Below, in pieces: positions 1 through 51,894 of a stretch of 51,894 nucleotides of DNA. Made by a program: the position numbers and the translations under genes. The stretch's first letter is position 1. Each line of letters opens with the position of its first letter. The notes beneath the pieces were generated by a model. That model was not told where the DNA came from, did no database searches, and saw nothing but the letters and a program-made list of their open reading frames with translations. The stretch is from Enterobacter phage Ec_L1, in the sequence record NC_042122.1. One strand, written 5' to 3'.

Positions 1-353
1 CGTTAGAGTCAAAGCGAAGGTCTGGACGGCAATAGGTTGCTCGGAATCCTTGGCACTTATTCCGGACATAGTCGCGATGAATCGCCATAGCTCCTGACAC
101 AGAAATCATACCACGCTTGCGCCATTCGTAAAGTGTGGCGTGCGAGATCTTAATGGCCTTGACAAGTGCAGCGGGTGAGCCGTAGTATTCAATCACTTTT
201 TCAAGGCGGTGAGCTAATCCGGCCTTTACCTCATCTTTCAGAACGTAATAGCCAGTTGGCTTTTTGCGCGCTTTCTTATCAGCGCCGCGTGAAGTCCCGT
301 TGTTACCGTTGAGAGAGCGCTTATCGACAGCGCCGGATTTAGTCAGTTTCGTC
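1..353 (-). CDS. Partial (3'-truncated by window edge) small HTH DNA-binding protein, Cro/CI/XRE-like
   Basis: Minus-strand ORF starting at the ATG at 353-351 with RBS gaggaaaatatc, and open to the window edge. Helix-turn-helix-like segment GSPAALVKAIKISHATLYEWRKRG. Divergent from the helicase promoter at 368. Confidence 0.45.
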
Positions 354-367
354 ATGATATTTTCCTC

Positions 368-412
368 AATAGCACTTTTTGTTAAACCATTCGTCTTGTT
401 GAGTGTTATTAT
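368..412 (+). promoter_or_regulatory. early promoter cassette P1: AATAGCACTTTTTGTTAAAC, 19-nt spacer, TGtTATTAT
   Basis: 20-bp palindromic element followed by an extended -10; no -35 at 17 bp. Confidence 0.6.
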
Positions 413-450
413 ATCGGAATATTACTGCAAACGTAAGAGATAAATACGCT

Positions 451-2484: not shown

Positions 2485-2902
2485 TAAAGGCGATTACCTG
2501 GAATATTACGAACGCGATCCAAGCGACACGCGAAAGGAGGAGGCGCACCAGAACGAAAGCGCCTCTTGGGTAAAACTTCACTACCCTGAGATCATATTCT
2601 GGCACACGGTCAACGAGGGCAAGAAAACAATCACCCAGGCAGACCGAGATCAGAGAGCCGGATTATTGAAAGGGGTGAGCGATAACGTATTCCTGAATGG
2701 TGTTTGCTACAAATTCCCGTTTGGAGCTATAGAGTTGAAGCGCGTCAATAAGAGCGGGAAAGGAAAGGCCTCACCAGTCAGCGCAGATCAGAAGGAATAC
2801 TTACGGCGCGTCAGGGAAAGGGGAGGTTTCGCCGCCGTCGCTTACGGATCTGAACAATTCAAACTGGCTTTCCTTGATATGATAGGAGAACAGCACGAAT
2901 AG
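2435..2902 (+). CDS. VRR-NUC (PD-(D/E)xK) nuclease domain protein
   Basis: VRR-NUC-like motifs WHTVNEG, GVSDNVFL and AIELKRVNKSGK...SADQKEYL. No internal ATG; probably a GTG or TTG start overlapping the helicase 3' end. Start is uncertain. Confidence 0.5.
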   Translation: MRTSLAEKILEGKLITDKGDYLEYYERDPSDTRKEEAHQNESASWVKLHYPEIIFWHTVNEGKKTITQADRDQRAGLLKGVSDNVFLNGVCYKFPFGAIELKRVNKSGKGKASPVSADQKEYLRRVRERGGFAAVAYGSEQFKLAFLDMIGEQHE

Positions 2903-2933
2903 CTAAAACAGGTGCAATGGAATGCGCTATTAT
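2889..2933 (+). promoter_or_regulatory. early promoter cassette P2 (degenerate element AACAGCACGAATAGCTAAAAC + TATTAT)
   Basis: Element, an 18-nt spacer containing hairpin GTGCA/TGCGC, then a -10. The dam gene follows. Confidence 0.55.
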
Positions 2934-2960
2934 CATCCCATCTTAAACAGGAGATTGATT

Positions 2961-3692: not shown

Positions 3693-3919
3693 TGAACATC
3701 AACAAAAATCTTTCAAAGTCTGATAAGTGGGCTGTATATCGCGCTCTGGTTGTCCTAGTTCTGGTTGAGGCCGGATATAACAAAGACCATTTCGAGCTTG
3801 CTGATTCGCTTGATATGTCATTCGAGGAGGTGGAGAATATCCCGATTGAAGAATGGCACGCCGTCATCATGAAAGACCTGCACGAGATGATCGCAGATTG
3901 TCCGGAGGACTTTGGATAA
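3692..3919 (+). CDS. hypothetical protein
   Basis: ORF with a TAATG overlap to dam; acidic 75 aa. Confidence 0.45.
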   Translation: MNINKNLSKSDKWAVYRALVVLVLVEAGYNKDHFELADSLDMSFEEVENIPIEEWHAVIMKDLHEMIADCPEDFG

Positions 3920-4161
3920 TGGATATTCGCGAGGGTAGGGCGGCAGTATGGGAGCACGCAAAAGAGTGCGGGATTGATGAAGATATAGCACGAATTGCTA
4001 AACACTTCGACATCAAAGAGATTAATATCTTTACTCCTGGCGACGGCGGAAAACTCACATATTTAAACGAGCGCCCTCGCAAATTCCACAAGATAGCGGT
4101 TGCAGCTAAACCAGAAAAAACGCTTGACCAATATCTCAAAGAGGCAAGAGGCAAAAAATGA
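3919..4161 (+). CDS. hypothetical protein
   Basis: ATG at 3919 overlaps the upstream TAA, suggesting translational coupling. 80 aa. Confidence 0.4.
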   Translation: MDIREGRAAVWEHAKECGIDEDIARIAKHFDIKEINIFTPGDGGKLTYLNERPRKFHKIAVAAKPEKTLDQYLKEARGKK

Positions 4162-4412
4162 ACTTACCAGGCTTGAGTTTTGACGAAACAGTTTACTCCA
4201 TAACCTGGAGGGGGAACATAAAGTTCCGTGAGATTCCTTTTGCTGACTGGTTGCCTCCAGATCACAAGGACGTTATTTGCTACGGCGGCGGTAAAGTTTT
4301 CGAGGCTTACTTATCACCATTATCATGCATGATGGTTCCGTCAGAAAACTCTACTGCGAATCGCGCCTTTGAGCCGTGCGAGCTTGATTACTGGTTGAAA
4401 GAGGTGGAGTAA
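4158..4412 (+). CDS. hypothetical protein
   Basis: ATGA overlap with the upstream gene; 84 aa. Confidence 0.4.
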   Translation: MNLPGLSFDETVYSITWRGNIKFREIPFADWLPPDHKDVICYGGGKVFEAYLSPLSCMMVPSENSTANRAFEPCELDYWLKEVE

Positions 4413-4498: not shown

Positions 4499-5632
4499 AT
4501 GCAACAGAAAATCACAGACGAGCAGTTGATCGCAGAGCGAGAAGCGGGGAAGACTCAGCGACAGATCGCTCAAGAGTACGGCATGAACATCCGAACCATT
4601 GAGCAGCGATGCTCTCGCCTGGCAAAGAAAGGTCACGGTCACGGTAACGCTCACGTATCGAAACATGTTCCGGAAGGGTTCGCCGTCAAAGGAACATCAA
4701 CCATGATTCGTGAGGACGGTACTGAGATTGTCCGTTGGGTTAAGACGGATCAGGATCGCGAAAAGCTGGCTGCAATGATGGACGCCGCTATCGATGCGTT
4801 TTGCATTGAGATCCCACGAGCCAAGCCTCAACCAATGCTTGACGTAAAGTTTGTTGAGGGTCAACTCGCACTATATCCGGTATTCGATCTGCACATTGGC
4901 GCTATGGCTCACAAGCACGAATGCGGAGAGAACTATTCAACAGACATCTCTGAGAAAGTTCTTAAGGACTTCTTTGATTACGCTGTTGAAATCGCACCTA
5001 ACGCAGAGAAAGCGGTTCTGTTAATCGGCGGTGACTTCCTTCACTCTGACGGGCTTGACGCTGTAACACCTGCAAGCGGTCACGTCCTGGATCAGGACTC
5101 TCGTTATGCAAAACTCGTTCACGTCGCTATCCGATCCGTTCGTCGCGCCGTTTCCAAAATGCTTGACAAGCACAACGAAGTTGAGATCCAGATTATTGAG
5201 GGCAACCATGACCAGGCGGGTATGATCTGGCTCCGTGCTGCAATGGCGGCGTTCTATGAGGATGAGCCTCGCGTTAAGGTTGACGTTAGCCCTATGATTT
5301 TACACCGCACGAAATGGGGTAAAACACTGCTCGGTTATACTCATGGTCACACCATGAAAAAAGCTGAGACGCGACTTGCAGCAATGGCTACGGATTTCCG
5401 TGAGGAGTTCGGATCTAGCAAGTACATCTACACCCACTCCGGACACTGGCACCACCAGACAATCACCGAGCATAGCTTGGGTATTGATGAGGTTCACGGT
5501 CAACTCGGAGCTAAGGATGCGTATGCGGCTCGCGGTGGCTGGCGCTCTTACCGTCAGGCTGCTGTCATCGTTTACTCGAAAGAGTTTGGCGAGATTGGTC
5601 GATTCGTGTATCGACCAGAAATGAGCAAGTAA
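4499..5632 (+). CDS. N-terminal HTH domain fused to a calcineurin-like metallophosphoesterase
   Basis: HTH-like TQRQIAQEYGMNIRTIEQRCSRLAKKG. Phosphoesterase motifs GGDFLHSDG, EGNHD, GHTH and GHWHH. RBS aaggaataaac before the ATG. Confidence 0.7.
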   Translation: MQQKITDEQLIAEREAGKTQRQIAQEYGMNIRTIEQRCSRLAKKGHGHGNAHVSKHVPEGFAVKGTSTMIREDGTEIVRWVKTDQDREKLAAMMDAAIDAFCIEIPRAKPQPMLDVKFVEGQLALYPVFDLHIGAMAHKHECGENYSTDISEKVLKDFFDYAVEIAPNAEKAVLLIGGDFLHSDGLDAVTPASGHVLDQDSRYAKLVHVAIRSVRRAVSKMLDKHNEVEIQIIEGNHDQAGMIWLRAAMAAFYEDEPRVKVDVSPMILHRTKWGKTLLGYTHGHTMKKAETRLAAMATDFREEFGSSKYIYTHSGHWHHQTITEHSLGIDEVHGQLGAKDAYAARGGWRSYRQAAVIVYSKEFGEIGRFVYRPEMSK

Positions 5633-6191: not shown

Positions 6192-6773
6192 ATGATTATT
6201 ATTCTGAACGCACCAGCCGGAGCCGGAAAAGATACCATTCAGCAAGCAATTGCGGATCTGCATGAGGTTTCACAACTGAGCTTCAAAAAACCAATGTTTG
6301 CTATGGCTAAGGCCATGCTTGGCGATATGGGGTTTGCTGAATTTATGGATGCTTACAATAACCGCGAGCGAAAAGAAAAGCCTCTTGATCTGCTTCACGG
6401 CTCAAGCCCTCGTCAGTTCATGATCTGGTTAAGTGAGAGCGTTATTAAACCGCACTTTGGAGACCAGCATTTTGGGAATCTGCTTTATGACGATTACATA
6501 ATGCACGAGAATGACGGCTACTATGTCGGAGTTGTCAGTGATGGCGGGTTTGAGAGCGAGACCATAGCCTTGATCGAAACTGGCGTTCCGGTTCGCCTGG
6601 TTCGACTACATCGTGACGGCTACACGTTTGCCGGAGACTCTCGCGATTATGTCAACCTGCCGCTCTACGCCAATAGTCCAACGTATGACTACCAGGAGTT
6701 TGACGTGCAGCTAACTGAAGGTTTACCAGTTGTGGCGGCGCTGGATATTCTTTCAATTGTCGGGTTGAAATAG
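6192..6773 (+). CDS. P-loop kinase (dNMP kinase / polynucleotide kinase-like)
   Basis: Walker A NAPAGAGKDT at the N-terminus, resembling phage dNMP kinases. Confidence 0.55.
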   Translation: MIIILNAPAGAGKDTIQQAIADLHEVSQLSFKKPMFAMAKAMLGDMGFAEFMDAYNNRERKEKPLDLLHGSSPRQFMIWLSESVIKPHFGDQHFGNLLYDDYIMHENDGYYVGVVSDGGFESETIALIETGVPVRLVRLHRDGYTFAGDSRDYVNLPLYANSPTYDYQEFDVQLTEGLPVVAALDILSIVGLK

Positions 6774-6813
6774 CACGAATTGCTAAAACTGGCGCAACGG
6801 AATGCGCTATTAT
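6769..6813 (+). promoter_or_regulatory. early promoter cassette P3 (AATAGCACGAATTGCTAAAAC + TATTAT)
   Basis: 18-nt spacer with hairpin GCGCA-acggaa-TGCGC. Leader caacgaaacgaaac. Confidence 0.6.
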
Positions 6814-6852
6814 CTTTTCAACGAAACGAAACACCCAAACAGGAGATACACC

Positions 6853-8637: not shown

Positions 8638-8666
8638 GGATAGCACCTCTCGTTTCGATGGAGCCA

Positions 8667-8710
8667 ATATAACAAAACCCGCCGAAGCGGGTTTGACAAA
8701 AAGTGCTATT
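8667..8710 (-). promoter_or_regulatory. early promoter cassette P13 (minus strand) with embedded terminator hairpin
   Basis: AATAGCACTTTTTGTCAAAC, then CCCGCTTCGGCGGG-TTTT, then TGtTATATT. Confidence 0.55.
8678..8695 (-). terminator. terminator hairpin CCCGCTTCGGCGGG + TTTT (inside P13 spacer)
   Basis: UUCG tetraloop hairpin plus a T-run on the minus strand. Confidence 0.55.
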
Positions 8711-10914: not shown

Positions 10915-11331
10915 TTACAAATATTTCGCTTCGAAAGTTGTTCCATCAGCGACACTGAAACCTACGTCCTCGCGGTACAGGTTCCACGGGCAACCGTCCT
11001 CATCAAAGATGTAGCCAGCTACACCGCCGAGCGCCCGACCGGAATCGACCTGGTAACGCTTGCCAACCTTGAAGGATTTCTTCATTGGGTTTTTGTGATC
11101 AAGTGACATGCACTTGAGGGTTTTGGTTTTCAGTTCAACGAACGTTGCCGCAACTACTCCGCCACTTGAGATAAAGATGTCACCGCTAACGCCAACAGAC
11201 AGGGCAATTTTTTCCTTTCCTTTGCCGACAGTCACATTCCCCTCATCGTCAACTTTTGCCTTTATCATATGGTTGGCGTTGAATGTTTTAGTCAGTGACA
11301 TTGTGCATTTCAGTTTGATTGACTTAGCCAT
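10915..11331 (-). CDS. hypothetical protein
   Basis: 138 aa; first gene downstream of promoter cassette P14. Confidence 0.5.
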   Translation of the reverse strand: MAKSIKLKCTMSLTKTFNANHMIKAKVDDEGNVTVGKGKEKIALSVGVSGDIFISSGGVVAATFVELKTKTLKCMSLDHKNPMKKSFKVGKRYQVDSGRALGGVAGYIFDEDGCPWNLYREDVGFSVADGTTFEAKYL

Positions 11332-11368
11332 TTTGAGATCCTCTTGTTGTCTCGTTTCGATGGGGCTA

Positions 11369-11412
11369 ATGTAACAAAACCCGCCGAAGCGGGTTTAACA
11401 AAAAGTGCTATT
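11369..11412 (-). promoter_or_regulatory. early promoter cassette P14 (minus strand) with embedded terminator hairpin
   Basis: Roughly 60-bp near-repeat of the P13 module. Confidence 0.55.
11380..11397 (-). terminator. terminator hairpin CCCGCTTCGGCGGG + TTTT (inside P14 spacer)
   Basis: Identical to the hairpin at 8678. Confidence 0.55.
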
Positions 11413-12890: not shown

Positions 12891-12922
12891 CTCATTACCT
12901 TACTGTTTTGTTGGATTGAGTA

Positions 12923-12969
12923 AAGTTTACCGCCTTACTCTATATTTGTCTTTAGCAATTCGTGCTATT
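12923..12969 (-). promoter_or_regulatory. early promoter cassette P15 (minus strand; -10 assignment uncertain)
   Basis: AATAGCACGAATTGCTAAAGAC abuts the upstream stop; the downstream -10 is poorly defined. Confidence 0.4.
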
Positions 12970-14000: not shown

Positions 14001-14028
14001 GGTGTCTCTCCTATGTTTCGTTGAGATA

Positions 14029-14073
14029 ACTATACCAAAGCCAGTCAGATCTGTTTTAGCAATTCGTGCTATT
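14029..14073 (-). promoter_or_regulatory. early promoter cassette P16 (minus strand)
   Basis: AATAGCACGAATTGCTAAAAC, 18 nt, TGgTATAGT, then leader caacgaaaca. Confidence 0.6.
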
Positions 14074-15358: not shown

Positions 15359-15386
15359 GAGATGTCTCCTTGTTTCGATGGGGTAA

Positions 15387-15430
15387 TGATAGCGCATCAC
15401 CCCGAACGCGTTTTAACAAAAAGTGCTATT
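15387..15430 (-). promoter_or_regulatory. early promoter cassette P17 (minus strand)
   Basis: AATAGCACTTTTTGTTAAAAC, 17 nt, TATCAT. Hairpin GGGGT..ACCCC around the -10. Confidence 0.5.
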
Positions 15431-15671: not shown

Positions 15672-15698
15672 GATGCGCCTCCTATGTTCCGATGAGAT

Positions 15699-15744
15699 GA
15701 TTATGCACCATTCGAGCCTGATTGGTTTAGCAAAAAGTGCTATT
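15699..15744 (-). promoter_or_regulatory. early promoter cassette P18 (minus strand; leftward promoter of divergent control region)
   Basis: AATAGCACTTTTTGCTAAAC, 19 nt, TGcATAATC. Confidence 0.55.
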
Positions 15745-15929: not shown

Positions 15930-16465
15930 TTCTGTGGAGGATTTGGGGAAAGTTACGGAGGATTTTTCGGACTCAATGCAGCGAACCATTCAGAGATAAC
16001 GCTCATCGTTTCCCCTCCCTGGTGTGCGTGATGTGCTGCGGAGGGTTGCGGAGGATTACGGAGGATTTGCAATTCGGCTCTAGCCCTTGGTGCGTCTGGT
16101 CTGCGAGAGATTTACGCCGGATAATGTCGATTTTTGTGCTGGGGCTGGTATATGTATACATAGAGAAATGATGTGAAAGTGATGTGCTCATACACGTAGA
16201 GAAAAAATGCAATAGTCCAATAATCCGCATAATCCTCCGTAAACTATGAAGAGAGAGACATATACCAATAGAGTAATATAGTAATAATATATATAAAAAC
16301 CCTTATATTACATATATATATAGTATTATTATATACTATTGTATATGAGTTGCTTGGTCATAAAATGAGCTGATTTTACGGAGGATGGTTCCGGCGCAAT
16401 CCTCCGCGATTTAACTAAGTACATGATTTACAAGGCCGCATTTACGGAGGATTTTTTCCGCAAAA
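15930..16465. repeat. iteron cluster A: about 9 copies of (A/G)CGGAGG(A/G)TT in both orientations, flanking a roughly 90-bp AT-rich core (16258-16350); candidate replication origin
   Basis: Tandem block gcggagggttgcggaggattacggaggatt at 16038-16067. Inverted pair at 16381-16412. AT-rich tract with polypurine/polypyrimidine runs. No credible coding capacity. Confidence 0.6.
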
Positions 16466-16483
16466 ACACGTAAAACCGCCCAA

Positions 16484-16528
16484 AATAGCACTTTTTGCTA
16501 AAACAGCACCCCTGGCTTTTGGTATTAT
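16484..16528 (+). promoter_or_regulatory. early promoter cassette P4 (AATAGCACTTTTTGCTAAAAC + TGgTATTAT)
   Basis: Rightward promoter of the divergent control region. Confidence 0.6.
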
Positions 16529-16564
16529 TATCTCAACGAAACGAAAGGCACAAAGGAAAACGTC

Positions 16565-16843
16565 ATGAAACTTAAGCGCGAAGCAATCAAACTCGGTAGC
16601 GAATACAACGGCAAGTGGAACTTTGTCATCATGGATAACGACGCCGAGAAGATCGAAGTTGTTGAAGAGGCGCTTTGTGCAATGGATACTGGCTTCTCCC
16701 TCGGTGGCGAAGAGAAAACCTGGGGCGACTACTGCGACCAATGCCCTTGCTATGAAGATGGTTATGGCTCCGGCTTCTGGATTGAGATCGAAGATGTTCC
16801 AGCATTCAAAGAAGCATACAAGGCCGCGAAGAAATCCATCTGA
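16565..16843 (+). CDS. small acidic protein (possible DNA-mimic-type accessory protein)
   Basis: 92 aa, about 24% Asp/Glu. First gene rightward of the control region. Its stop TGA abuts the next promoter cassette. Confidence 0.5.
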   Translation: MKLKREAIKLGSEYNGKWNFVIMDNDAEKIEVVEEALCAMDTGFSLGGEEKTWGDYCDQCPCYEDGYGSGFWIEIEDVPAFKEAYKAAKKSI

Positions 16844-16886
16844 TAGCACGAATTGCTAAACATGAGCCGGAGCAATCCGGCATAAT
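16842..16886 (+). promoter_or_regulatory. early promoter cassette P5
   Basis: Element, hairpin GCCGGA-GCAA-TCCGGC, then CATAAT. Confidence 0.6.
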
Positions 16887-16916
16887 GCACCCATACCAAC
16901 CAGTGAGGAAAGAGAA

Positions 16917-17246
16917 ATGGCATACCAGGACAAAAGAATCGAGATCGTAGAGAAGGCTGAGGAAATTCACAATCAGGTGCGACTTGCCAGAAAGATGGGT
17001 GTCAGCAACAAGGATATTATCCTTGGCATCGTTGAACAGCACAGCCCTATCAACGTTCGATACGTCGCTTTCATGGTTGAGACTGGACTGTTCGCCTTGC
17101 ACGGATATGGTCATCAATTCTTTAACTACATCAGCGATAAAAAGATGGCATACCAGGCCGCTAACCCTGTCGGGGTGAGCCGATCCGGTTTCATCGTTGA
17201 CCACGAGGATTTCACGCGATTCATCCTGGATAGCACGAATTGCTAA
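16917..17246 (+). CDS. hypothetical protein
   Basis: 109 aa; its 3' end runs through the next promoter element, with the stop TAA being the CTAAAAC of the motif. Confidence 0.5.
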   Translation: MAYQDKRIEIVEKAEEIHNQVRLARKMGVSNKDIILGIVEQHSPINVRYVAFMVETGLFALHGYGHQFFNYISDKKMAYQAANPVGVSRSGFIVDHEDFTRFILDSTNC

Positions 17247-17273
17247 AACTCCTGATCGGGGCTATGCCATAAT
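17229..17273 (+). promoter_or_regulatory. early promoter cassette P6
   Basis: Element, 18 nt, then TGcCATAAT inside hairpin GGGGCT/AGCCCC. Confidence 0.6.
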
Positions 17274-17304
17274 AGCCCCACTGAAACGAAACGAGGATTA
17301 AATC

Positions 17305-17499
17305 ATGATTCAGATCAACCAGACAACAAGCACCCTGGAGGCTATCTCCGCACTCCGCAAACTGGCTGACATGCTGGAAAGCAAGAGCGCATTTCTCTTA
17401 AGCGGAGAGGTCAACGACAGGCGCAACTATTGCGAAGGTCGCACAATCAGCATCGACATCTCAGTATTCACCGATTCAGATGAGGAGATTTGCATATGA
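17305..17499 (+). CDS. hypothetical protein
   Basis: 64-aa ORF. Confidence 0.45.
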   Translation: MIQINQTTSTLEAISALRKLADMLESKSAFLLSGEVNDRRNYCEGRTISIDISVFTDSDEEICI

Positions 17500-17687
17500 T
17501 TAGCGCTGAGGCCTGGGTGTTCCGAGCGGGGTTCTATGCAAAAATCGGATTTGATTTCTACATCTGGCACCCAATCAAGAAGATTTGGATCAGAATCTAC
17601 TGGCTTTGTGGCAACACTTACGAAAGGGCGCGTTGCAATCGCAAGTTAATGAAGGTCAAGATCCTGCTAGAAAAGATCCGACTATAG
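17496..17687 (+). CDS. hypothetical protein
   Basis: ATGA overlap with the upstream gene; the stop TAG is the TAG of the next promoter motif. Confidence 0.4.
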   Translation: MISAEAWVFRAGFYAKIGFDFYIWHPIKKIWIRIYWLCGNTYERARCNRKLMKVKILLEKIRL

Positions 17688-17727
17688 CACTTTTTGCTAA
17701 ACGCCGCCCGACGCAATCGGGCATAAT
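17683..17727 (+). promoter_or_regulatory. early promoter cassette P7 (TTTTT-centre variant)
   Basis: Element, hairpin GCCCGA-cgcaa-TCGGGC, then CATAAT. Confidence 0.6.
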
Positions 17728-17757
17728 GCAGTTACACCAAACAAACGGAGCAATACC

Positions 17758-18051
17758 ATGAAAAAGAAAACCAACCTCGTTCGCGTTCGTCTACTCACTG
17801 ACGGATATTTCCGTGACAGCGACAATCTGAAAGTATGGCTCAAGCCTCGCACCTTCCCTGTTATCGTCAACGCTGAGATTGTGAAGTCTGAAAGCGGGTT
17901 GCCAGTTTTCGCAAAAGTGCCAATGTCCGAATGCGTTGCTATCGGCATGAATCCGGCAATCTTTGGTAACGGCCTGGAAGGGTGCGGATTGTCCTGGGCG
18001 CTGCATGAGGTTGATGACCTGTGCGGCAACCCTGAAGCTGAGATCCTGTAA
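17758..18051 (+). CDS. hypothetical protein
   Basis: 97 aa; RBS ggagcaatacc. Confidence 0.5.
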   Translation: MKKKTNLVRVRLLTDGYFRDSDNLKVWLKPRTFPVIVNAEIVKSESGLPVFAKVPMSECVAIGMNPAIFGNGLEGCGLSWALHEVDDLCGNPEAEIL

Positions 18052-18278
18052 TGGCACGCCGTCAAGTAACCTGCACGTGTGGAGCGTATAGTTTCCCGCA
18101 TCGGTTCGGTGGCGGCAAGTGTGACGGCCTGGTCATCGTGATAGCGGCGGCGGGGTCATCCCACTGCCACTATTGCCATTTGAATAATAACGGCTGTGAA
18201 GTGATTAAGGGTCAGGAGCATCCGCGAGAGTGTCCGGCTGTTGTTGACTTCTGCGAATATAACGAGGTGAAACTATGA
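18051..18278 (+). CDS. Cys-rich small protein (putative Zn-binding)
   Basis: 11 Cys in 75 aa. Confidence 0.45.
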   Translation: MARRQVTCTCGAYSFPHRFGGGKCDGLVIVIAAAGSSHCHYCHLNNNGCEVIKGQEHPRECPAVVDFCEYNEVKL

Positions 18279-18475
18279 AAACCTTCGAAACCAAAGAGTA
18301 CCATGACGAGGACGGCGACGGCTTAACTGTTGACTGCCACGACACGCACGTCGAGATCATGACCTGGAGCACTACGGGGTGCGGTGTATTCTCCGATCCG
18401 AAAGTGTTGCGTGAAATTGCCGCTCAACTGGTACGCGGCGCGGAAGAACTGGAGCGAATCAATGAAAAAGGTTGA
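18275..18475 (+). CDS. hypothetical acidic protein
   Basis: 66 aa, ATGA overlap. Confidence 0.4.
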   Translation: MKTFETKEYHDEDGDGLTVDCHDTHVEIMTWSTTGCGVFSDPKVLREIAAQLVRGAEELERINEKG

Positions 18476-18728
18476 CAAGGGATTATCCTTATTTGCTGCC
18501 TTGGCTATCGTGGCTGCTGTAATCGGCGGGGCTACAGTGTCCGAGGGATATCGCATTCACAAGCTGGTGAACAGCGTCGATGATGAAGGAAAAGTTATCT
18601 GTGCTCTGACTGGTAACGAGCGAACGCGAAACACTACGGTTATTGTAGGAAAGCTGATTCTACCTGAAACTGTCGAGGAGCAAGAATATTATTGCGCCCC
18701 AGGTAAATTCTACTGGGTTGCGAAATAG
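18462..18728 (+). CDS. membrane-anchored small protein (N-terminal signal-anchor)
   Basis: ATG at 18462. N-terminal hydrophobic segment LSLFAALAIVAAVIGGATV. Confidence 0.45.
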   Translation: MKKVDKGLSLFAALAIVAAVIGGATVSEGYRIHKLVNSVDDEGKVICALTGNERTRNTTVIVGKLILPETVEEQEYYCAPGKFYWVAK

Positions 18729-18768
18729 CACGAATTGCTAAACCTTCCGCAAGGCCATTTGCTAAAGT
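18724..18768 (+). promoter_or_regulatory. early promoter cassette P8
   Basis: Element, 19 nt, then TGcTAAAGT inside hairpin GGCCA/TGGCC. Confidence 0.55.
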
Positions 18769-18809
18769 GGCCTTATTGAAGCAACAGCAACCAATCAGAG
18801 GAAATTAGC

Positions 18810-19124
18810 ATGCAAGTATTCGTTAAGCTCGTCGATACGTATTACATGGCCGCGCAAGGTATGGATGGTGTAATCGTCAAAGGTGAAACCTTAAGCTCGC
18901 ATCCGGATTACGCGGCAAAGCCTGGAGATTCAGTTTTCGTGGACATCCGTGACATGCGACCGTTCATGCGTCCTGAACATCATCATCTGTGTGACGAATG
19001 GCTTGATAAGCCCATGCGTTACCTTTACACCATCCCAGGGGTGTACGACACAAGAGCGACGTGTGATGTTGTAGATAACCCGTTCGCGCACTGGAACACA
19101 CTCAAGAGCGGCGAACTCCACTAA
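18810..19124 (+). CDS. hypothetical protein
   Basis: 104-aa ORF. Confidence 0.5.
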   Translation: MQVFVKLVDTYYMAAQGMDGVIVKGETLSSHPDYAAKPGDSVFVDIRDMRPFMRPEHHHLCDEWLDKPMRYLYTIPGVYDTRATCDVVDNPFAHWNTLKSGELH

Positions 19125-19182
19125 GACGATAAACCACCAGGGGAGAATTTACTCCCCTCACAAAGCGATAGAGGGCGTTTAA

Positions 19183-19500
19183 ATGGCATCAAAAATCAAC
19201 GTAAATCCTAAGCACCACGATTTGAAGATTGCTCCCGAGCATTTCCGCAACGTGTGCCTGGGGCTGAAAACGGCGGAGTACCGTCGCAATGACCGCAACT
19301 TTGAGCAGTTTGATATTATCCGATTGCGCGAGTATGACAACGGGCATACGGGTAATGAGGTTTCCGCTGTGATCTCTCACGTCCTGGATCTGGATGAGTT
19401 TCACAAGCTAAGCGGTGATGAGTTCCAGATCGGCTATGTGGTTCTGTCAATCCAGTTAATCAACGGGAGCCGGAAATGCGCCACTACAGAATTGCAGTAA
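19183..19500 (+). CDS. ASCH-like / DUF3850-like protein
   Basis: HDLKIAPEHF...LKTAEYRRNDRNFEQFDIIRLREY matches the ASCH/DUF3850 fold pattern from memory; weak. Confidence 0.4.
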   Translation: MASKINVNPKHHDLKIAPEHFRNVCLGLKTAEYRRNDRNFEQFDIIRLREYDNGHTGNEVSAVISHVLDLDEFHKLSGDEFQIGYVVLSIQLINGSRKCATTELQ

Positions 19501-19691
19501 TCGAAACCACAACGGCGTTTGGCGATCCGGTAAAGCGATACGCCATTCAGTTGCGCGTTGCGTTCTTCTGGTGGGTGACGGTAGAGATTTGCGGCTCACT
19601 ATTCCAGGCTCGCTACTGGCTGAACGAGAGCAAGGCTCCCATTCGAAAAGAGCGAATCATCAAGGTCATTGAGAATAGCACGAAAAGCTAA
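19476..19691 (+). CDS. hypothetical protein
   Basis: Overlaps the upstream gene; ORF runs into the next promoter motif. Confidence 0.35.
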   Translation: MRHYRIAVIETTTAFGDPVKRYAIQLRVAFFWWVTVEICGSLFQARYWLNESKAPIRKERIIKVIENSTKS

Positions 19692-19718
19692 AACATCCAG
19701 GCGTGGTATTGCTATAGT
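19674..19718 (+). promoter_or_regulatory. early promoter cassette P9 (CGAAAAGCTA variant)
   Basis: Element, 18 nt, TGcTATAGT, followed by the palindrome GTGAGATCAC. Confidence 0.55.
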
Positions 19719-19747
19719 GAGATCACACCAAACGAGAGGATTCGAAC

Positions 19748-19978
19748 ATGATCGTAAAGAATAAGTTAGGCGACTACCACGTCAGCGACAAAACCGTAGA
19801 GCATGGTTTTGGCTGGGGCGGCGGTATCTACTTTCGCACCAAATCAGGAAAGTGGAAGTTTAACGGCATTGGTCAGCCAGTAGCCAACGCTCAAGAGGTC
19901 GACAAGAACGACATCAACCAGGAAACTAAACTCCCATGGGGCTTAGATCCAGAAACTTACCAGAAGGTGGAATCATGA
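19748..19978 (+). CDS. hypothetical protein
   Basis: 76 aa; RBS gagaggattcgaac. Confidence 0.45.
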   Translation: MIVKNKLGDYHVSDKTVEHGFGWGGGIYFRTKSGKWKFNGIGQPVANAQEVDKNDINQETKLPWGLDPETYQKVES

Positions 19979-20292
19979 AACTGTTATGTGTCAACTCACC
20001 AGTGAAAGGCCTCATCAAAGAGGGTAAGGCTTACGACATCGCTAACGAAAGCAGCGCGGCGACAACCAAAGTCATCTTTGACGAATTCGGCGTCCCGCTC
20101 TACCTGAATCCGGTCCCTGGCTCTGCTGGCCTGTATCAATCACGACTCGGTAACGGCGTGTTCCTGTTCCGCATGGTTGACAGCAGCTTCGAAAAGCACC
20201 AGAAGAAGCTACGCAACGAGCGCCGGATTGAGCTTGCGATCCTGTTCGCTGGCGCAATCCTGGTAACGGCTTACATGTTAATGCAGGGGTAA
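19974..20292 (+). CDS. hypothetical protein with C-terminal TM helix
   Basis: ATGA overlap; C-terminal IELAILFAGAILVTAYMLM. Confidence 0.45.
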
Positions 20293-20295
20293 ACG

Positions 20296-20586
20296 GTGGA
20301 CGGCGAAAACATGCGCTTTTACCCTTCCACGGCTGGAGGGGTTAAAACTCACTACATGCACGACTTGCCGCCAGGCATGACGATGAAACGTATTCGCGAG
20401 GTTGGCAAGGAGTACGCAAAGAACGCGGGGCTACAGTTCAAAGCCAAGAAGATCAGAGGCCGCAACCTCCTGGTCATTCGGATGAGCTTCGTCCCCTGGT
20501 TGATGGATGACTTCTCTTTTGCAGATGGGGTTAAGGGTTGTCAGTGTGACGCGTGCGAGCGCTGGTATAAAGAATCCGGCAAATAG
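20296..20586 (+). CDS. hypothetical protein
   Basis: Start is ambiguous (GTG at 20296 or ATG at 20311). C-terminal CQCDAC. Confidence 0.4.
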   Translation: MDGENMRFYPSTAGGVKTHYMHDLPPGMTMKRIREVGKEYAKNAGLQFKAKKIRGRNLLVIRMSFVPWLMDDFSFADGVKGCQCDACERWYKESGK

Positions 20587-20626
20587 CACGAATTGCTAAA
20601 ACGGGATGCTCGCTGACTGGTATATT
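20582..20626 (+). promoter_or_regulatory. early promoter cassette P10
   Basis: Element, 18 nt, then TGgTATATT inside hairpin GGGATG/CATCCC. Confidence 0.6.
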
Positions 20627-20658
20627 GTGTTCATCCCAACACGAAAGAGAAATTCAAA

Positions 20659-20907
20659 ATGATGAGACATGCTGAAGTATTACATATGGTGACTAAATCT
20701 ATCGCTGACGACAGCCAGGTCATTATTAACTTCAACCAAACCATGTCAAAGGGTATCGCGTGTATAACCATCGAAAGCGATATCGTGGCTGGACTTACAG
20801 CAAAGATAATCGCAACAGGAACCCACTGGGACGGCGAGCCAATTACGCCGGAAAAGGCATGTGAGTATATTTACATGCATTCATCAGCCATTACGGAGAT
20901 TATTTAA
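20659..20907 (+). CDS. hypothetical protein
   Basis: 82-aa ORF. Confidence 0.45.
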   Translation: MMRHAEVLHMVTKSIADDSQVIINFNQTMSKGIACITIESDIVAGLTAKIIATGTHWDGEPITPEKACEYIYMHSSAITEII

Positions 20908-20908
20908 C

Positions 20909-21421
20909 ATGAAAGAAAAATACATGCGCGCAACATCCGTTTCATTCGTCGCACCATACACGATGAACGGATTCACGGCTGGCAAGCGCTACTTCTCTAA
21001 CGAGGGCGCGTATATCTGGCAGCGAGAAAACGGAGACGTTTACGGAATTAGCCGGACTGGTGTTACTGACGATGACGGTCAAGATCGCGTTGTCTGCCTG
21101 GTTGAGACAAGCATTTTCAACGGTGAAACGCTCGTTGCTCGAATCGAACACGAGTATGACGAAAACGCCGTAATCCGTAAGCGCAACCGCTATCGCCACA
21201 TGGTCATTAACGCCTTTGCTATGTATGCCCGTCGCTGGTGGAACATGAGCAAGAAACAGGCTCGTGCCTGGGGTCGCATGCATGCGGAGCCGTTCTTCTA
21301 CAATGATGGTTCTCTCGTTGAGGACACGATCGTAAGCGACTATGTCGACTCGGCTAAGTTGTGGGAAGTGGATCAAGAGCTTTTCAACGATGCTGTTTAC
21401 GAAGAAATGTCATGCTGGTAA
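20909..21421 (+). CDS. hypothetical protein
   Basis: ATG at 20909 overlaps the upstream stop (taacATG). 170 aa. Confidence 0.5.
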   Translation: MKEKYMRATSVSFVAPYTMNGFTAGKRYFSNEGAYIWQRENGDVYGISRTGVTDDDGQDRVVCLVETSIFNGETLVARIEHEYDENAVIRKRNRYRHMVINAFAMYARRWWNMSKKQARAWGRMHAEPFFYNDGSLVEDTIVSDYVDSAKLWEVDQELFNDAVYEEMSCW

Positions 21422-21465
21422 ATAGCACGAATTGCTAATCTTGCGCGAGGTCATTTTGCTATAGT
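21421..21465 (+). promoter_or_regulatory. early promoter cassette P11
   Basis: Element, 19 nt, then TGcTATAGT inside hairpin GGTCA/TGACC. Near-duplicate of the P8 cassette and leader. Confidence 0.55.
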
Positions 21466-21505
21466 GACCTCATTAAAGCAAAGCAACCAATCAGAGGAAA
21501 CACCC

Positions 21506-22234
21506 ATGAAATTATCACTCAAAGCACTCGCAACCAACCGAATCAACGGATCTGTAACGGCGTTCAAAACCTACCCAGTCTTAAATGACGTGCTGGCAAA
21601 CCTGACGGATTCGGGGTATTGGTTCATCAACGATAACGGTGAAAAGCAGTTCGCATATAAGTTTGCAGTTAAAGACGGATTCAGCGATCCGAAAAAACAA
21701 TACAGCTTTGAGCTTGCGCTACAGGTTGACACCTTGCAAGAAACGATCAACTCAGATGTAAAGGCAGCAATCACAAATGCATGTCGTTCCGGTGGTCACA
21801 TTTACGATAAATTCCGTAGCGGGATGTACTCACTTGGCGGTCACTTTGGAGGACTGGCGACAACCCACAAGTCAATCGTTGGGTCTGAAAAAGATTCATT
21901 CAATGTCTGTGACGCGGATGGAAACGTGAGAGTTCAGATCGGTAAGATTAAACCCGCTCAGAGCGTTAAAGAGGATGAGCGTGACGCGGCGGTTGTCGAA
22001 CTCGACAAGCACCTCCCAGCATACCGCCGATCTGATAAAGGTTTCAACCTGGTAGATAGCATCGCGTGGCTCGGAAAACTGAACACGGCTCACGCGTCGG
22101 ATTGCCAGAAATATGAGGGAATTCTTGAGGATTTGATGGAGGCGTTCGATATTCGAACCATTGACGGACTCAAGCATTTCGCCTCTAACCTGAAACGCTC
22201 CGCAGACATCATCGATACAGTTCGCAAGAAATAG
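21506..22234 (+). CDS. hypothetical protein
   Basis: ATG at 21506 with RBS cagaggaaacaccc. The listed upstream extension would overlap the promoter. Confidence 0.5.
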   Translation: MKLSLKALATNRINGSVTAFKTYPVLNDVLANLTDSGYWFINDNGEKQFAYKFAVKDGFSDPKKQYSFELALQVDTLQETINSDVKAAITNACRSGGHIYDKFRSGMYSLGGHFGGLATTHKSIVGSEKDSFNVCDADGNVRVQIGKIKPAQSVKEDERDAAVVELDKHLPAYRRSDKGFNLVDSIAWLGKLNTAHASDCQKYEGILEDLMEAFDIRTIDGLKHFASNLKRSADIIDTVRKK

Positions 22235-22274
22235 CACGAAAAGCTAAAACAATGCCGGAGCAATCCGGCATAAT
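22230..22274 (+). promoter_or_regulatory. early promoter cassette P12
   Basis: Element, hairpin GCCGGA-GCAA-TCCGGC, then CATAAT. Same hairpin as P5. Confidence 0.6.
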
Positions 22275-22304
22275 GAACTCATCGAAACAAACGGAGCTAT
22301 AGAG

Positions 22305-22538
22305 ATGAGCAAGGCACAATATAAACTGATTCAGATCGTGAACGTAGAATCTCGCTTTGATGATTATAGTCTCACGCTTCACGAGTGCGGGATTGAGGTT
22401 AACGAAAGATTTTACGCTGACGTTTACGGCGGTGGCACTGCCTGGATTCGCGCAAAGCGTGACAATGCTGACAAAAGCATTCTTGCAGGCGACAACCTTT
22501 CAGTTGACTTTGGCGATTATATCGAGGTGGCAGAGTGA
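22305..22538 (+). CDS. hypothetical protein
   Basis: 77 aa; RBS ggagctatagag. Confidence 0.45.
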   Translation: MSKAQYKLIQIVNVESRFDDYSLTLHECGIEVNERFYADVYGGGTAWIRAKRDNADKSILAGDNLSVDFGDYIEVAE

Positions 22539-22816
22539 AAATCATCTGGGTTCACACGTACGAAACAGGAACGGCAACCAATCGGAAAACGGTTGATAGC
22601 GTGCATCACGTATACAACGAGGCGCTTGAGCAGCAAACGCTACTCGGCGGCACGGTTGAGGAGTTCAACCAAATGCCAACGATTGCATGGTTCCGCGAGC
22701 AGTACCTACAGCAGCCAAAGCCGGAGCCGGAGCTTGTGCAAACTTTTGGTCGCGGGTTGCGCGGCAACAGTGCCAAATGTATCATGGTCGACTTTAACGA
22801 CGGAGAGAATGAATGA
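22535..22816 (+). CDS. hypothetical protein (GTG start)
   Basis: 93 aa; GTGA overlap. Confidence 0.4.
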   Translation: MKIIWVHTYETGTATNRKTVDSVHHVYNEALEQQTLLGGTVEEFNQMPTIAWFREQYLQQPKPEPELVQTFGRGLRGNSAKCIMVDFNDGENE

Positions 22817-23184
22817 AACTGACTATCAATATGCCAGCAAGTGCGATCTATATGGCTCACACCGCGCCAAGCGTTGAAGGTTCCGCGTGTGTCCTGGTTC
22901 ACTTTGACCGCTATGGAGTTCCTCGCTCTTTGATGTCAGGGACATTTGGCGAATCTACTTTCTTAGACATCCCTGATGATGTCTGGATTGGCAGCGATTT
23001 CCATTGTCACATGGTTGCCAGCTATGAGCCAGATCACAAGAGGATTTCTCGCCGAACCATTAAACGCATCATCAAGCACTGGCAGCGAAACGCTGACATC
23101 TGCAATAATGCGGAATTCGCTGGAAATCTCTCGGTTGTATTGTCCTGGTACGGCGGTTTCGTACCAAGCCCACAAAACAAATAA
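22813..23184 (+). CDS. hypothetical protein
   Basis: 123 aa; ATGA overlap. Confidence 0.45.
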   Translation: MKLTINMPASAIYMAHTAPSVEGSACVLVHFDRYGVPRSLMSGTFGESTFLDIPDDVWIGSDFHCHMVASYEPDHKRISRRTIKRIIKHWQRNADICNNAEFAGNLSVVLSWYGGFVPSPQNK

Positions 23185-30379: not shown

Positions 30380-30407
30380 TTGACCGTTTAACAAAAAGTG
30401 CTATTAT
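30380..30407 (+). promoter_or_regulatory. canonical sigma70 promoter TTGACC-16-TATTAT for major capsid gene
   Basis: -35 and -10 at the right spacing. Overlaps a reverse-oriented copy of the 20-bp element. Confidence 0.6.
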
Positions 30408-33127: not shown

Positions 33128-33531
33128 TGCACTTTGAACTATATGAGGCAAGCGCCGAGTTTGTTGCGTCAATCATCCAGGACAGTGACAACCTTGTCGC
33201 CTGGGAGAACATCGCTTTCACTCCTCCGGCTGATGGATCTGAGTATTACCGATTCAACTACAAGGAGGCCGACACGGTTACAACTTCACTTGATCGCAAG
33301 TGCGCCTATTTTGTCGGAATGGTTCAGGTAGATGTTGTGTTTTCGCCTGGCTCCGGCATTAGTGTAGCAAGAAAATTAGCGGCTGATGTTGCAAAAAGTG
33401 CTATCGATGGTACAATGCTTTCGACAGGTTATATTTTATCTCGTGGGGCGGTTCATCCCGCCCAGAAATCAGACACGGGCTGGTTTATTCCGGTTCGGTT
33501 CTATGTTCGATGTGAAACAAAAGGAGCATAA
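33127..33531 (+). CDS. tail completion / terminator-like protein
   Basis: 134 aa. Contains an internal extended -10 promoter for the next gene. Confidence 0.4.
   Translation: MHFELYEASAEFVASIIQDSDNLVAWENIAFTPPADGSEYYRFNYKEADTVTTSLDRKCAYFVGMVQVDVVFSPGSGISVARKLAADVAKSAIDGTMLSTGYILSRGAVHPAQKSDTGWFIPVRFYVRCETKGA
33388..33416 (+). promoter_or_regulatory. intragenic extended -10 promoter TGgTACAAT (upstream of major tail gene), preceded by GCAAAAAGTGCTAT half-element
   Basis: Same TGGTACAAT nonamer as the tail-fibre promoter at 45453. Lies inside CDS 33127-33531. Confidence 0.45.
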
Positions 33532-37909: not shown

Positions 37910-38260
37910 ATGGCACTTGAAACTTTTACCTGGTGTACTCAGGTTCAAAACAACGGGGGCGCTGGGAGCGTCTCCGACAACGTGAGAGGGATTCAATTCG
38001 GTAACGGGTTCCGGCAGTTGGCAACGGCTGGGTTGAACACGATCCGAAGGGAGTTCAACATTGTGTATGGTGGTAGCAAGTGGGAGGATGTTTATAACTT
38101 CCTTACCAGGCATACATACAAGCCATTCATATGGAAAGCACCTGATGGAAAGTTAGGAATCTTCACGGTCAAGAGCGGCTCCATCGCTATGAGGCCGATA
38201 AAGGATGGAATGCTTGAGGTCACTTGCCAGGTAAGCGAGGAGTTCACAAGCGCACGATAA
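37910..38260 (+). CDS. minor tail protein (lambda gpM-like)
   Basis: 116 aa immediately after the TMP. Confidence 0.55.
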   Translation: MALETFTWCTQVQNNGGAGSVSDNVRGIQFGNGFRQLATAGLNTIRREFNIVYGGSKWEDVYNFLTRHTYKPFIWKAPDGKLGIFTVKSGSIAMRPIKDGMLEVTCQVSEEFTSAR

Positions 38261-38296
38261 GCTAAAAGGTCGCCTTTCGGGGTGGCCTTTTTTATT

Positions 38297-45452: not shown

Positions 45453-45484
45453 TGGTACAATAGCGTTTAGCAAAATGTGCTATT
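45453..45484 (+). promoter_or_regulatory. extended -10 promoter TGgTACAAT for tail fibre gene plus reverse-oriented element copy in leader
   Basis: Follows terminator 45420-45440. GTTTAGCAAAATGTGCTATT lies between the -10 and the RBS. Confidence 0.5.
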
Positions 45485-50247: not shown

Positions 50248-50278
50248 GTATGACTCCTTTTGTGTGCGTGTGCGATGC

Positions 50279-50320
50279 AGTATACCCGATCTCATTCGTT
50301 GCGTTTAGCAAAAAGTGCTC
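50279..50320 (-). promoter_or_regulatory. early promoter cassette P19 (minus strand; exo-SSAP-ssb operon)
   Basis: GAGCACTTTTTGCTAAAC, 18 nt, TATACT, RBS aaaaggag. Confidence 0.55.
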
Positions 50321-50327
50321 ATTTTTA

Positions 50328-51760: not shown

Positions 51761-51797
51761 CACTTTTATATTCTCCAAAATAGAAACGGGCGCGATC

Positions 51798-51843
51798 ATA
51801 ATAACCGCGCCCGCTTGGGATTGCTTAGCTTTTTGTGCTTATT
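51798..51843 (-). promoter_or_regulatory. degenerate early promoter cassette P20 (minus strand; primase)
   Basis: AATAAGCACAAAAAGCTAAGC, about 19 nt, TTATTAT, enclosed in hairpin GGGCGCG/CGCGCCC. Confidence 0.4.
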
Positions 51844-51894
51844 TCACCACTCTCAACATCTCACGCCGATCGCATCGTGTGGTAAGAGCCTTTC

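Follow-up and report, generated by a model that had tools for sequence, protein, structure and literature searches.

An oriented 21-nucleotide repeat and predicted promoter cassettes in Enterobacter phage Ec_L1 and other T1-like phages

Enterobacter phage Ec_L1 carries, ahead of many of its genes, copies of a 21-nucleotide (nt) element that stands at a fixed distance from a -10 hexamer. The DNA analysed here, termed the window, is the whole stretch of 51,894 nt (NC_042122.1). It represents a complete, circularly permuted genome of a T1-like phage (Drexlerviridae), since an open reading frame (ORF) of 136 amino acids spans the window ends and its product is 99% identical to a full-length database protein. 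The nearest relative is Enterobacter phage Phc (genus Eclunavirus; Drexlerviridae), with 85-88% identity over ~90% of the structural and replication regions; the match extends to only ~25% of the accessory-gene region. Six genomes from six genera were surveyed fully (Ec_L1, Phc, T1, Rtp, TLS and Pantoea phage AAS23) and three metagenomic relatives were scanned in part, for a total of nine T1-like sequences.

The element and its promoter geometry

The element has the pattern AATAGCAC-N4-TGCTAAAAC and a length of 21 nt, not the 20 nt given in the initial annotation of the window. Its palindromic core, TAGCA-N5-TGCTA, has 13 exact occurrences in the window where 0.04 are expected. The 21-mer AATAGCACNNNNTGCTAAAAC, with up to three mismatches, occurs 21 times against an expectation of 0.08, a count that no shuffle equalled. 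A weight-matrix scan of the window yields 22 strong copies and weak ones at 33405(-), 38248(+), 51842(-) and 3298(+). The initial annotation had listed about 20 copies; all 20 coordinates were right within 2 nt, but those at 3984(+), 30405(-) and 45484(-) had been missed. The element is present in 9/9 of the T1-like sequences, across distant genera, and 116 sites lie above the score threshold in the six genomes.

A hexamer of the form [T/C]A...T is found 17-19 base pairs (bp) downstream of the element in 101 of these 116 strong copies, at exactly 18 bp in 89 and at 17 or 19 bp in 12, where about 3% would be expected at any one offset. Within the window, 19 of 21 promoter-type copies have a spacing of 18 bp and the remaining two have 17 and 19 bp; this is tighter than the 17-20 nt originally claimed. 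Conservation of the element and its spacing in related Drexlerviridae had been named beforehand as a test, and both the element and the 18-bp spacing are kept across distant genera. With a transcription start placed 7 nt past the hexamer, the element extends from -52 to -31 and its dyad centre falls at -42. The class II activator geometry that had been proposed is thus borne out, and it goes beyond the published account of the repeat discussed below.

Other positions of the promoters are conserved as well. Alignment of the 89 promoters in register gives TAtaaT as the -10 consensus; its A (-11) and T (-7) belong to the definition of the hexamer. The predicted +1 is an A in 77/89 (87%) across the six genomes and in 18/21 in the window, and C is frequent at -1. 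G is present at -14 in 73/89 promoters (82%) and the full TG in 39/89 (~44%); in the window, TGn precedes 10 of 21 hexamers. A start codon with a Shine-Dalgarno sequence follows on the same strand 72-86 nt from the 5′ end of the element in 21 copies of the window, with about 76 nt typical. The leader AUCGAAAC(G)A is conserved from +1 to ~+12; it is A/C-rich and G/U-poor, and reaches from the predicted start to the ribosome-binding site.

The -35 box, in contrast, is missing, as had been proposed. The -35 region of the cassettes reads AAA(A/C)Cn, and the best match to TTGACA at 16-18 bp from the hexamer is 2-3 of 6 in 81/89 promoters and at most 3 of 6 in 82/89. The sole TTG, in TTGnTA, lies 22 bp from the -10, a gap well outside the working sigma-70 spacer range. 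The window has no excess of conventional sigma-70 promoters (23 vs 24.4, 22 vs 18.5 and 11 vs 13.0 expected), in agreement with the TLS authors, who counted only three in that phage (PMC11447400).

The copies, with the weak ones, are the following.

368-419, plus strand: helicase operon cassette; element 368-388 (T-type), 18-bp spacer, TGt-TATTAT at 407-412, A at 419
2889-2940, plus strand: adenine methyltransferase cassette; element AACAGCACGAATAGCTAAAAC, TATTAT at 2928-2933
3984-4035, plus strand: cassette-like copy inside ORF 3853-4161; TAATAT 18 bp downstream, T at +1; identical in Phc
6769-6820, plus strand: cassette preceding small genes and those for holin, endolysin and spanin
8659-8710, minus strand: cassette with terminator-like spacer hairpin AAACCCGCTTCGGCGGGTTT
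11361-11412, minus strand: cassette for gene 10915-11331, with the same spacer hairpin AAACCCGCTTCGGCGGGTTT as 8659-8710
12917-12969, minus strand: cassette with 19-bp spacer and TAAACT hexamer
14022-14073, minus strand: cassette with TGg-TATAGT; Phc homology ends just downstream
15379-15430, minus strand: cassette with TATCAT, hairpin stem arms on both sides of the -10
15693-15744, minus strand: cassette with CATAAT
16484-16535, plus strand: DUF5417 gene cassette with TGg-TATTAT, first of the plus-strand accessory array
16842-16893, plus strand: cassette with CATAAT and spacer hairpin ccggagcaatccgg
17229-17280, plus strand: cassette with TGc-CATAAT, hairpin ggggct/agcccc around the -10
17683-17734, plus strand: cassette with CATAAT
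18724-18775, plus strand: cassette with TGc-TAAAGT, hairpin aaggcc/ggcctt around the -10
19674-19725, plus strand: cassette with TGc-TATAGT, right half-site AGCTA
20582-20633, plus strand: cassette with TGg-TATATT
21421-21472, plus strand: cassette with TGc-TATAGT, hairpin gaggtca/tgacctc around the -10
22230-22281, plus strand: cassette with CATAAT, last forward one before the structural gene block
50272-50322, minus strand: RecE-like exonuclease gene cassette, 17-bp spacer, TATACT
51791-51842, minus strand: weak copy with A-type centre, ATAAGCACAAAAAGCTAAGCA (matrix score 9.1); TATTAT follows after 18 bp and then the primase gene
38248-38268, plus strand: weak copy, score 17.5, overlapping a terminator ahead of the minor tail gene at 38333; without promoter geometry
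33385-33405, minus strand: weak copy within a gene, score 15.1

As judged from this architecture, the copies are the standard promoter cassettes of T1-like phages (Drexlerviridae), and they lack a -35 box. They are predicted to drive nearly all non-structural units, among them the unit with the lysis genes. Contrary to the initial annotation, the regulon is accordingly not confined to early genes, and a second class of copies is found at late genes. The copy at 3984-4035 is possibly an internal promoter for the ORFs 4158-4412 and 4499-5632; the weak copy at 33385-33405 is probably a chance occurrence or a relic.

Conservation within the element is uneven. Over the 89 aligned promoters the near-invariant bases are A-50, A-48, G-47, C-46, A-45, C-44, T-40, G-38, A-35 and A-34. 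The left half, ATAGCAC, is invariant and the TTG also constant; the right half varies (TGCTA, TGTTA, AGCTA, and GCAAC or GCCAA in divergent phages). A fixed orientation with respect to transcription is strictly kept. The centre is of the type CGAAT (G-type), CTTTT (T-type) or A-rich (A-type). Of the two sub-classes first recognized, both are thus real, but the A-rich centre has to be added, and the association of centre with strand holds only in Ec_L1 and Phc. The helicase cassette has a T-rich centre in 6/6 genomes. Centre type is tied to C or T at position 15 of the element (G-type 37 C/2 T, T-type 16 C/22 T; Fisher p = 3e-7, six genomes), which implies two or more lineages or affinity classes of cassettes. 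Between Ec_L1 and Phc the element is identical at 292/294 positions and the flanks at 82-88%, which rules out a recent repeat expansion.

The element had been thought undescribed for T1-like phages. However, when phage TLS was re-annotated in 2024 (PMC11447400), a direct repeat of 21 nt was reported, aaATAGCACnnnTTGnTAAAA, which is identical to the Ec_L1 consensus and is grouped A/T/G by its centre. Similar repeats are stated there for T1, Rtp and Rogue1, and the role is left unassigned, with stoperators, enhancer sites or UP elements suggested. The sequence comparisons thus indicate that the 21-nt repeat is real, functional and family-wide, but it was already published.

It might be supposed that the host RNA polymerase alone reads the element, either in an UP-like manner via its alpha subunits or with TTGnTA as a displaced -35 box, the cassettes then being strong constitutive promoters. 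This is considered unlikely, although several features are consistent with it, as is the TLS authors' suggestion of UP elements (PMC11447400). Genera whose proteins share only 50-60% identity have the element unchanged, which fits a reader conserved like polymerase. The TTG is invariant, and the three bases after it differ among divergent phages (TTGCAA, TTGCCA, TTGCCT), as in a -35-like sequence. The centre of the element is variable yet A/T-rich, the flanks are A/T-rich also, and the frequent G at -14 would represent partial independence from a -35 box. Against polymerase alone stand the 22-bp gap between TTG and -10, and the CATAAT hexamers, which should have very little strength of their own where TG and a -35 box are lacking. 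An UP element was also rejected on its bases: UP sequences are A/T-rich, extend from -60 to -38, are read by the C-terminal domain of the alpha subunit (alpha-CTD) and have no invariant G/C bases, whereas the best-conserved bases here are G or C (AGCAC and G-38; the top positions are G-47, C-46, C-44 and G-38) and the element extends to -31.

Further promoter types were rejected. A sigma-54 promoter would read GGCAC-N5-TTGC; the element has AGCAC-N3-TTGC, which is 2 bp too short and has A for the first G, and the conserved -10 and +1 lie ~37 nt farther downstream, as against a start ~12 nt after the GC. A sigma-32 -10 sequence (CCCCAT) past the hexamer is produced by hairpin arms together with the CA at the start, and its spacer is variable, without a conserved -35 partner. 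An antisense promoter arising from the reverse complement (GTGCTATT, TGnTAT-like) has the required T at -7 in only 17/89 forward copies (19%).

A conserved host protein, with Lrp as the leading guess, might instead have been borrowed as activator and late-gene repressor. A reader supplied by the host would account for the invariance of the element and would already be there when infection begins. The T-type core TAGCACTTTTTGCTA matches the E. coli Lrp consensus yAGhAwATTwTdCTr (PMC5554404) at 13/15 positions and the G-type core at 11/15, with the same 5+5+5 layout. Position 6, however, should be A/T in an Lrp site and is an invariant C here, and conserved flanks lie outside the Lrp site. Near-exact 21-mers are found in only 423 of 5426 E. 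coli genomes, and there in accessory islands, not in core promoters, which argues against a host regulon. In addition, the classical mutations to T1 resistance are in the receptor and uptake genes fhuA (tonA) and tonB; a dispensable regulator such as lrp is not among their targets. A role of Lrp thus appears distinctly improbable.

The chromosome of E. coli PK6 (NZ_CP042588, locus L127, 2473-2521) and E. coli 503025 (locus L126, 2504-2524) have high-scoring element copies in accessory islands. One island displays two copies back to back, 7 bp apart. The copy in the other is 174 nt upstream of an AlpA-like helix-turn-helix (HTH) gene beside an integrase remnant. A homologue of the Cro-like phage regulator described below is absent from both of these islands with isolated element copies. 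In a wider viral collection, among the matches listed, multi-copy loci in promoter geometry are mostly on contigs of ~46-53 kb, or on fragments.

Late-gene copies and the candidate regulator

A second class consists of the 15 of 116 copies that are without promoter geometry, all of which lie directly upstream of virion or packaging genes in the six genomes. The entire asymmetric 21-mer is kept in these copies as well, but their positions vary: some lie within a promoter spacer, some cover a start site and others adjoin a ribosome-binding site. Those of the capsid and tail-fibre genes in the window are as follows.

30380-30407, plus strand: conventional, near-consensus sigma-70 promoter of the major capsid gene, TTGACC-16-TGcTATTAT; the reversed element at 30385-30405 fills the spacer and the start of the -10
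45453-45484, plus strand: tail-fibre gene extended -10 TGgTACAAT (45453-45461); the reversed element at 45464-45484 follows directly and covers ~-2 to +19

The capsid arrangement is also present in Phc, T1, TLS and AAS23. It is not universal, since the Rtp capsid gene (L123, 12500-12540) has a promoter with a consensus extended -10, TTGCGT-16-TGtTATAAT, and no full reversed element. The tail-fibre arrangement, in which the extended -10 is conserved, recurs in Phc, Rtp, T1 and the sequence L128. At the tail-tip (J) gene of T1 and TLS a forward A-type copy is situated 13 nt past a hexamer (TATAAT or TACAAT) and directly next to the start codon. A protein bound at the capsid, tail-fibre or J-gene copies would, from their placement, block polymerase. 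That one conserved 21-mer is found at such different positions relative to promoters is the main reason for favouring a separate DNA-binding factor over host polymerase alone.

The most likely source of such a factor is found in the control region, where a regulator gene and its presumed promoter (P_reg) lie back to back with the helicase cassette.

1-355, minus strand: Cro-like regulator gene, 5′ part (136 amino acids, ATG at 355); the ORF continues over the window ends
51839-51894, minus strand: Cro-like regulator gene, 3′ end
408-413, minus strand: P_reg -10 hexamer TATAAT, overlapping the helicase -10 (407-412) on the opposite strand

This back-to-back arrangement was found in 8/8 phages checked. 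The reversed helicase element would lie at ~+13 to +33 of the P_reg transcript. The P_reg -10 is of the TATAAT class in 8/8 phages and perfect in 5/8, and the -35 match at 16-18 bp is 3-5 of 6 in the eight phages (TTGAAT in T1, TTGACT in TLS, TTAACA in AAS23). Its TLS counterpart, P57, is one of the three sigma-70 promoters accepted by the TLS authors (PMC11447400). Host polymerase should therefore express the regulator gene unaided, given a conventional promoter with a TATAAT-class -10. A further sequence, TTGACA-18-TAGTAT (10 of 12), is present at 159-188(+), inside the regulator gene on the opposite strand and pointing towards the helicase cassette.

The regulator is present in every T1-like genome examined. 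It matches the profile phrog_2856 and, weakly, P22 Cro. Its predicted structure (pLDDT 88.6) has a core with an all-alpha Cro fold, resembling Xfaso-1 Cro (TM 0.74) and N15 Cro. Among the core proteins scanned it is the only HTH regulator, and no other has a DNA-binding domain. Invariant residues are found outside the base-contact positions, in an N-terminal DKRxxNGNNGxxR segment (modelled with low confidence) and a C-terminal GFRA...RPD..FD.NG...C segment. Even the most divergent homologues (48%, 53% and ~35% identity) are paired with the same element. In the divergent relative L018 (IMG/VR contig of 49,990 bp, 163-460) the homologue is short, with ~35% identity, and is without the N-terminal DKRxxNGNNG segment.

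As the only HTH regulator among the core proteins scanned, the Cro-like regulator is the most likely candidate for the factor that binds the element. The initial annotation had named it as a candidate together with an HTH-phosphoesterase (4499-5632). The former is reasonable, though its contact residues vary; the latter is an SbcD/Mre11-type exonuclease (phrog_704) and an unlikely regulator.

It is proposed that a sequence-specific factor, with the Cro-like regulator as the likeliest binder, activates the cassettes from -42 and blocks the late promoters. The chance of this being correct is put at about even. Host polymerase would make the regulator unaided from P_reg. The element would stand in for the -35 box, and the protein bound there, with the centre of its site at -42, would recruit the sigma-70 RNA polymerase of the host. 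CRP acts in this way at galP1, lambda CI at PRM and Mor/C at promoters of phage Mu. The overlap of the P_reg and helicase -10 hexamers, together with a transcript that crosses the element, might lead to autoregulation. Because the same element occludes the capsid and tail-fibre promoters, one factor could turn non-structural genes on and late promoters down. How the late promoters are released is a matter of speculation; replicating binding sites may titrate the factor.

Several points weigh against this proposal. In the literature on T1-like phages no start-site mapping, transcriptome, binding or expression data were found. The ~44% of promoters with the full TGn extended -10 might fire without an activator, and the -35 box of P_reg in Ec_L1 is weak (3 of 6). 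Base-contact residues 72, 73, 76 and 77 of the regulator differ among Ec_L1, T1, TLS, Rtp and AAS23 and the element is the same. L018 keeps its cassettes, with AGCAC, TTTTTG and the 18-bp spacing retained and the right halves degenerate, despite a regulator that lacks the conserved N-terminal segment. Conservation of the palindrome is asymmetric and orientation matters; a symmetric dimer, as first suggested, is doubtful because only the left half, ATAGCAC, is invariant and orientation is strict. Finally, the invariance of the element across genera could reflect a conserved host reader or homogenization by recombination.

An alternative is that the element serves repression only, as an operator or stoperator; the cassettes would fire unaided and would later be shut off, or have read-through blocked, by a phage protein. 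The late-gene and P_reg copies are in classic repressing positions, many cassettes have TGn, and the stoperator analogy was raised by the TLS authors (PMC11447400). Repression alone, however, gives no reason for an exact 18-bp register in ~100 promoters with the -35 box always missing, and the same repressor on early cassettes and late promoters gives no temporal order. Repression as the sole function is accordingly thought quite improbable.

An extension of the proposed activation and occlusion by one factor can be put forward with considerable reserve and is more doubtful than the proposal itself. A virulent phage family may run its whole timing programme via one asymmetric 21-bp site and a single factor, with ~20 activated promoters, the capsid, tail-fibre and the factor's own promoter blocked, and a late switch by titration over ~25 sites. 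The factor would read DNA in an atypical way, because the canonical recognition residues of the candidate are not conserved.

Hairpins and accessory-gene exchange

Hairpins are found in ~37/87 cassettes, 22 within the spacer and 15 bracketing the -10. The 22 spacer hairpins are G+C-rich and end exactly at the -10 (e.g. 8672-8689, 16863-16880, 22251-22268), and for this reason the -10 may supply the terminator T-tract for the upstream gene. The T1 record annotates such spacer hairpins as terminators. Spacer stems differ between Ec_L1 and Phc but still pair (at 2889, gcgca/tgcgc vs ccgga/tccgg). The other 15 cassettes have a 6-bp inverted repeat around the -10 (null mean 5.3, maximum 14 in 2000 shuffles), of which the 5′ arm occupies spacer positions 7-12 and the 3′ arm the six bases past the hexamer. 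There are at least 11 different stems; examples are at 18751-18774, 21448-21471 and 17256-17279, with equivalents in T1, TLS and Rtp. The bracketing repeat would form only in read-through RNA or in melted DNA. Over the structural region within 20001-51894, terminator-like hairpins occur at ~2x the shuffled frequency (39 vs 20.4, 22 vs 11.4).

A further alternative is that the palindrome functions in RNA, as a boxB-like 5-bp stem with a pentaloop in read-through transcripts, bound by a processing or antitermination factor before the spacer hairpin. A terminator-like hairpin directly follows the element in ~30-40% of cassettes. The most frequent substitution, of C by T at position 15 (61 C, 25 T), still allows pairing, as G-U, with the invariant G5. 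However, no double compensatory change was seen, variants T13A and T3C break pairs, and the start site predicted for each cassette is downstream of its element. Nor does an RNA function explain why the -10 is at a fixed distance. No known RNA families (Rfam) or tRNAs were found in the window, and the 21-mer palindrome matches no Rfam family. An RNA function is therefore regarded as extremely improbable.

Cassettes coincide with boundaries of homology. Of 18 breakpoints between Ec_L1 and Phc, eight are within cassettes, where 8.7% would be expected (P = 7e-5); at 14073 and 16842, for example, a conserved cassette is followed by an unrelated gene. As the cassettes are near-identical, they may act as recombination joints for accessory-gene exchange. 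This is supported as a second role of the cassettes rather than the main one. That the 21-mer is mainly a recombination or mobility signal of selfish gene cassettes, conserved by exchange, is considered very unlikely. The breakpoints, the gene replacements right after intact cassettes and the sub-families linked by centre type and position 15 would fit such a signal, and the T4 PeSL cassettes offer a precedent (PMC2839356, PMC4122927). The fixed -10 register, the G at -14 and the A at +1 are left unexplained by it, as is the same-place copy at core genes (helicase, primase, capsid) in every genus.

In the accessory region 16000-23000 the most widely shared part is the DUF5417 gene with its cassette (16476-16861). 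This stretch matches ~300 records of Klebsiella, Escherichia and Shigella phages at 84-87%; neighbouring genes are without such matches.

Significance and comparison with known systems

T1 is a classic coliphage, and T1-like phages are common in phage-therapy collections. What is added to the published repeat is the exact promoter architecture, the distinction between copies in activating and occluding positions, the conventional promoter of the regulator and the role as recombination joint. A repeat without assigned function is thereby turned into a precise, testable model: its positions are defined, a candidate regulator is named, and early activation is tentatively linked to late repression. 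Should this model prove true, T1-like phages have compact ~50-bp promoter cassettes with one controlling factor, which would aid annotation and engineering and help to explain accessory-gene swaps. If host polymerase alone reads the element, an unusual mode of promoter recognition would be represented.

The TLS direct repeat (PMC11447400) is the same in sequence, in orientation with transcription, in its distance of ~76 nt to start codons, in its ~20 copies per genome and in its A/T/G sub-groups. The TLS paper differs in that it contains no report of the 18-bp link to the -10, the missing -35, the conserved +1 or the late-promoter copies. The stoperators of mycobacteriophage L5, cited by the TLS authors, are likewise numerous, asymmetric and oriented, and the late-gene and P_reg copies would block polymerase as stoperators do. 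However, 87% of the copies described here are at a fixed upstream promoter position, not within transcribed regions. Moreover, Ec_L1 is virulent and without a known repressor, and only the 15 late-gene copies and the P_reg copy fit the description.

The PeSL cassettes of T4-type phages (PMC2839356, PMC4122927) are repeated units of early promoter and hairpin that flank small accessory genes at mosaic boundaries. The T1-like cassettes resemble them in their place at such boundaries and, for the ~37/87 with a hairpin, in the combination of promoter and stem-loop. The two are unrelated in sequence; in the T1-like cassettes the hairpin is inside the spacer or around the -10, and the upstream 21-mer is conserved, not the -35 and -10 boxes.

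T4 middle promoters (MotA/AsiA) resemble the cassettes in that the -35 box is replaced by a phage-specific, TGCT-containing box, here TTTGCTAAA. The MotA box, tTGCTTtA, is centred at -30 and 11-13 (~12) bp upstream of the -10, whereas TGCT lies here at -39 to -36, 23 bp away, and a MotA-box promoter was rejected as a description of the cassettes. No match to MotA or AsiA was found among 16 window proteins scanned against Pfam.

Middle and late promoters of phage Mu are activated by Mor and C, small phage HTH proteins, and have only a -10 box with an imperfect dyad over the -35 region. The cassettes are similar as a -10-only phage regulon with an imperfect dyad overlapping that region. There is no sequence or family relationship between the two systems; the candidate here has a Cro fold and is without a match to the Pfam Mor family.

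The geometry is also that of class II activator promoters (CRP at galP1, FNR, lambda CI at PRM), with a site near -42 over the -35 position, a weak or absent -35 box and, in part of the promoters, extended -10 features. The T1-like cassettes differ from these in that the activator is putative, the site is asymmetric and strictly oriented, and ~20 near-identical copies are present in each 52-kb genome.

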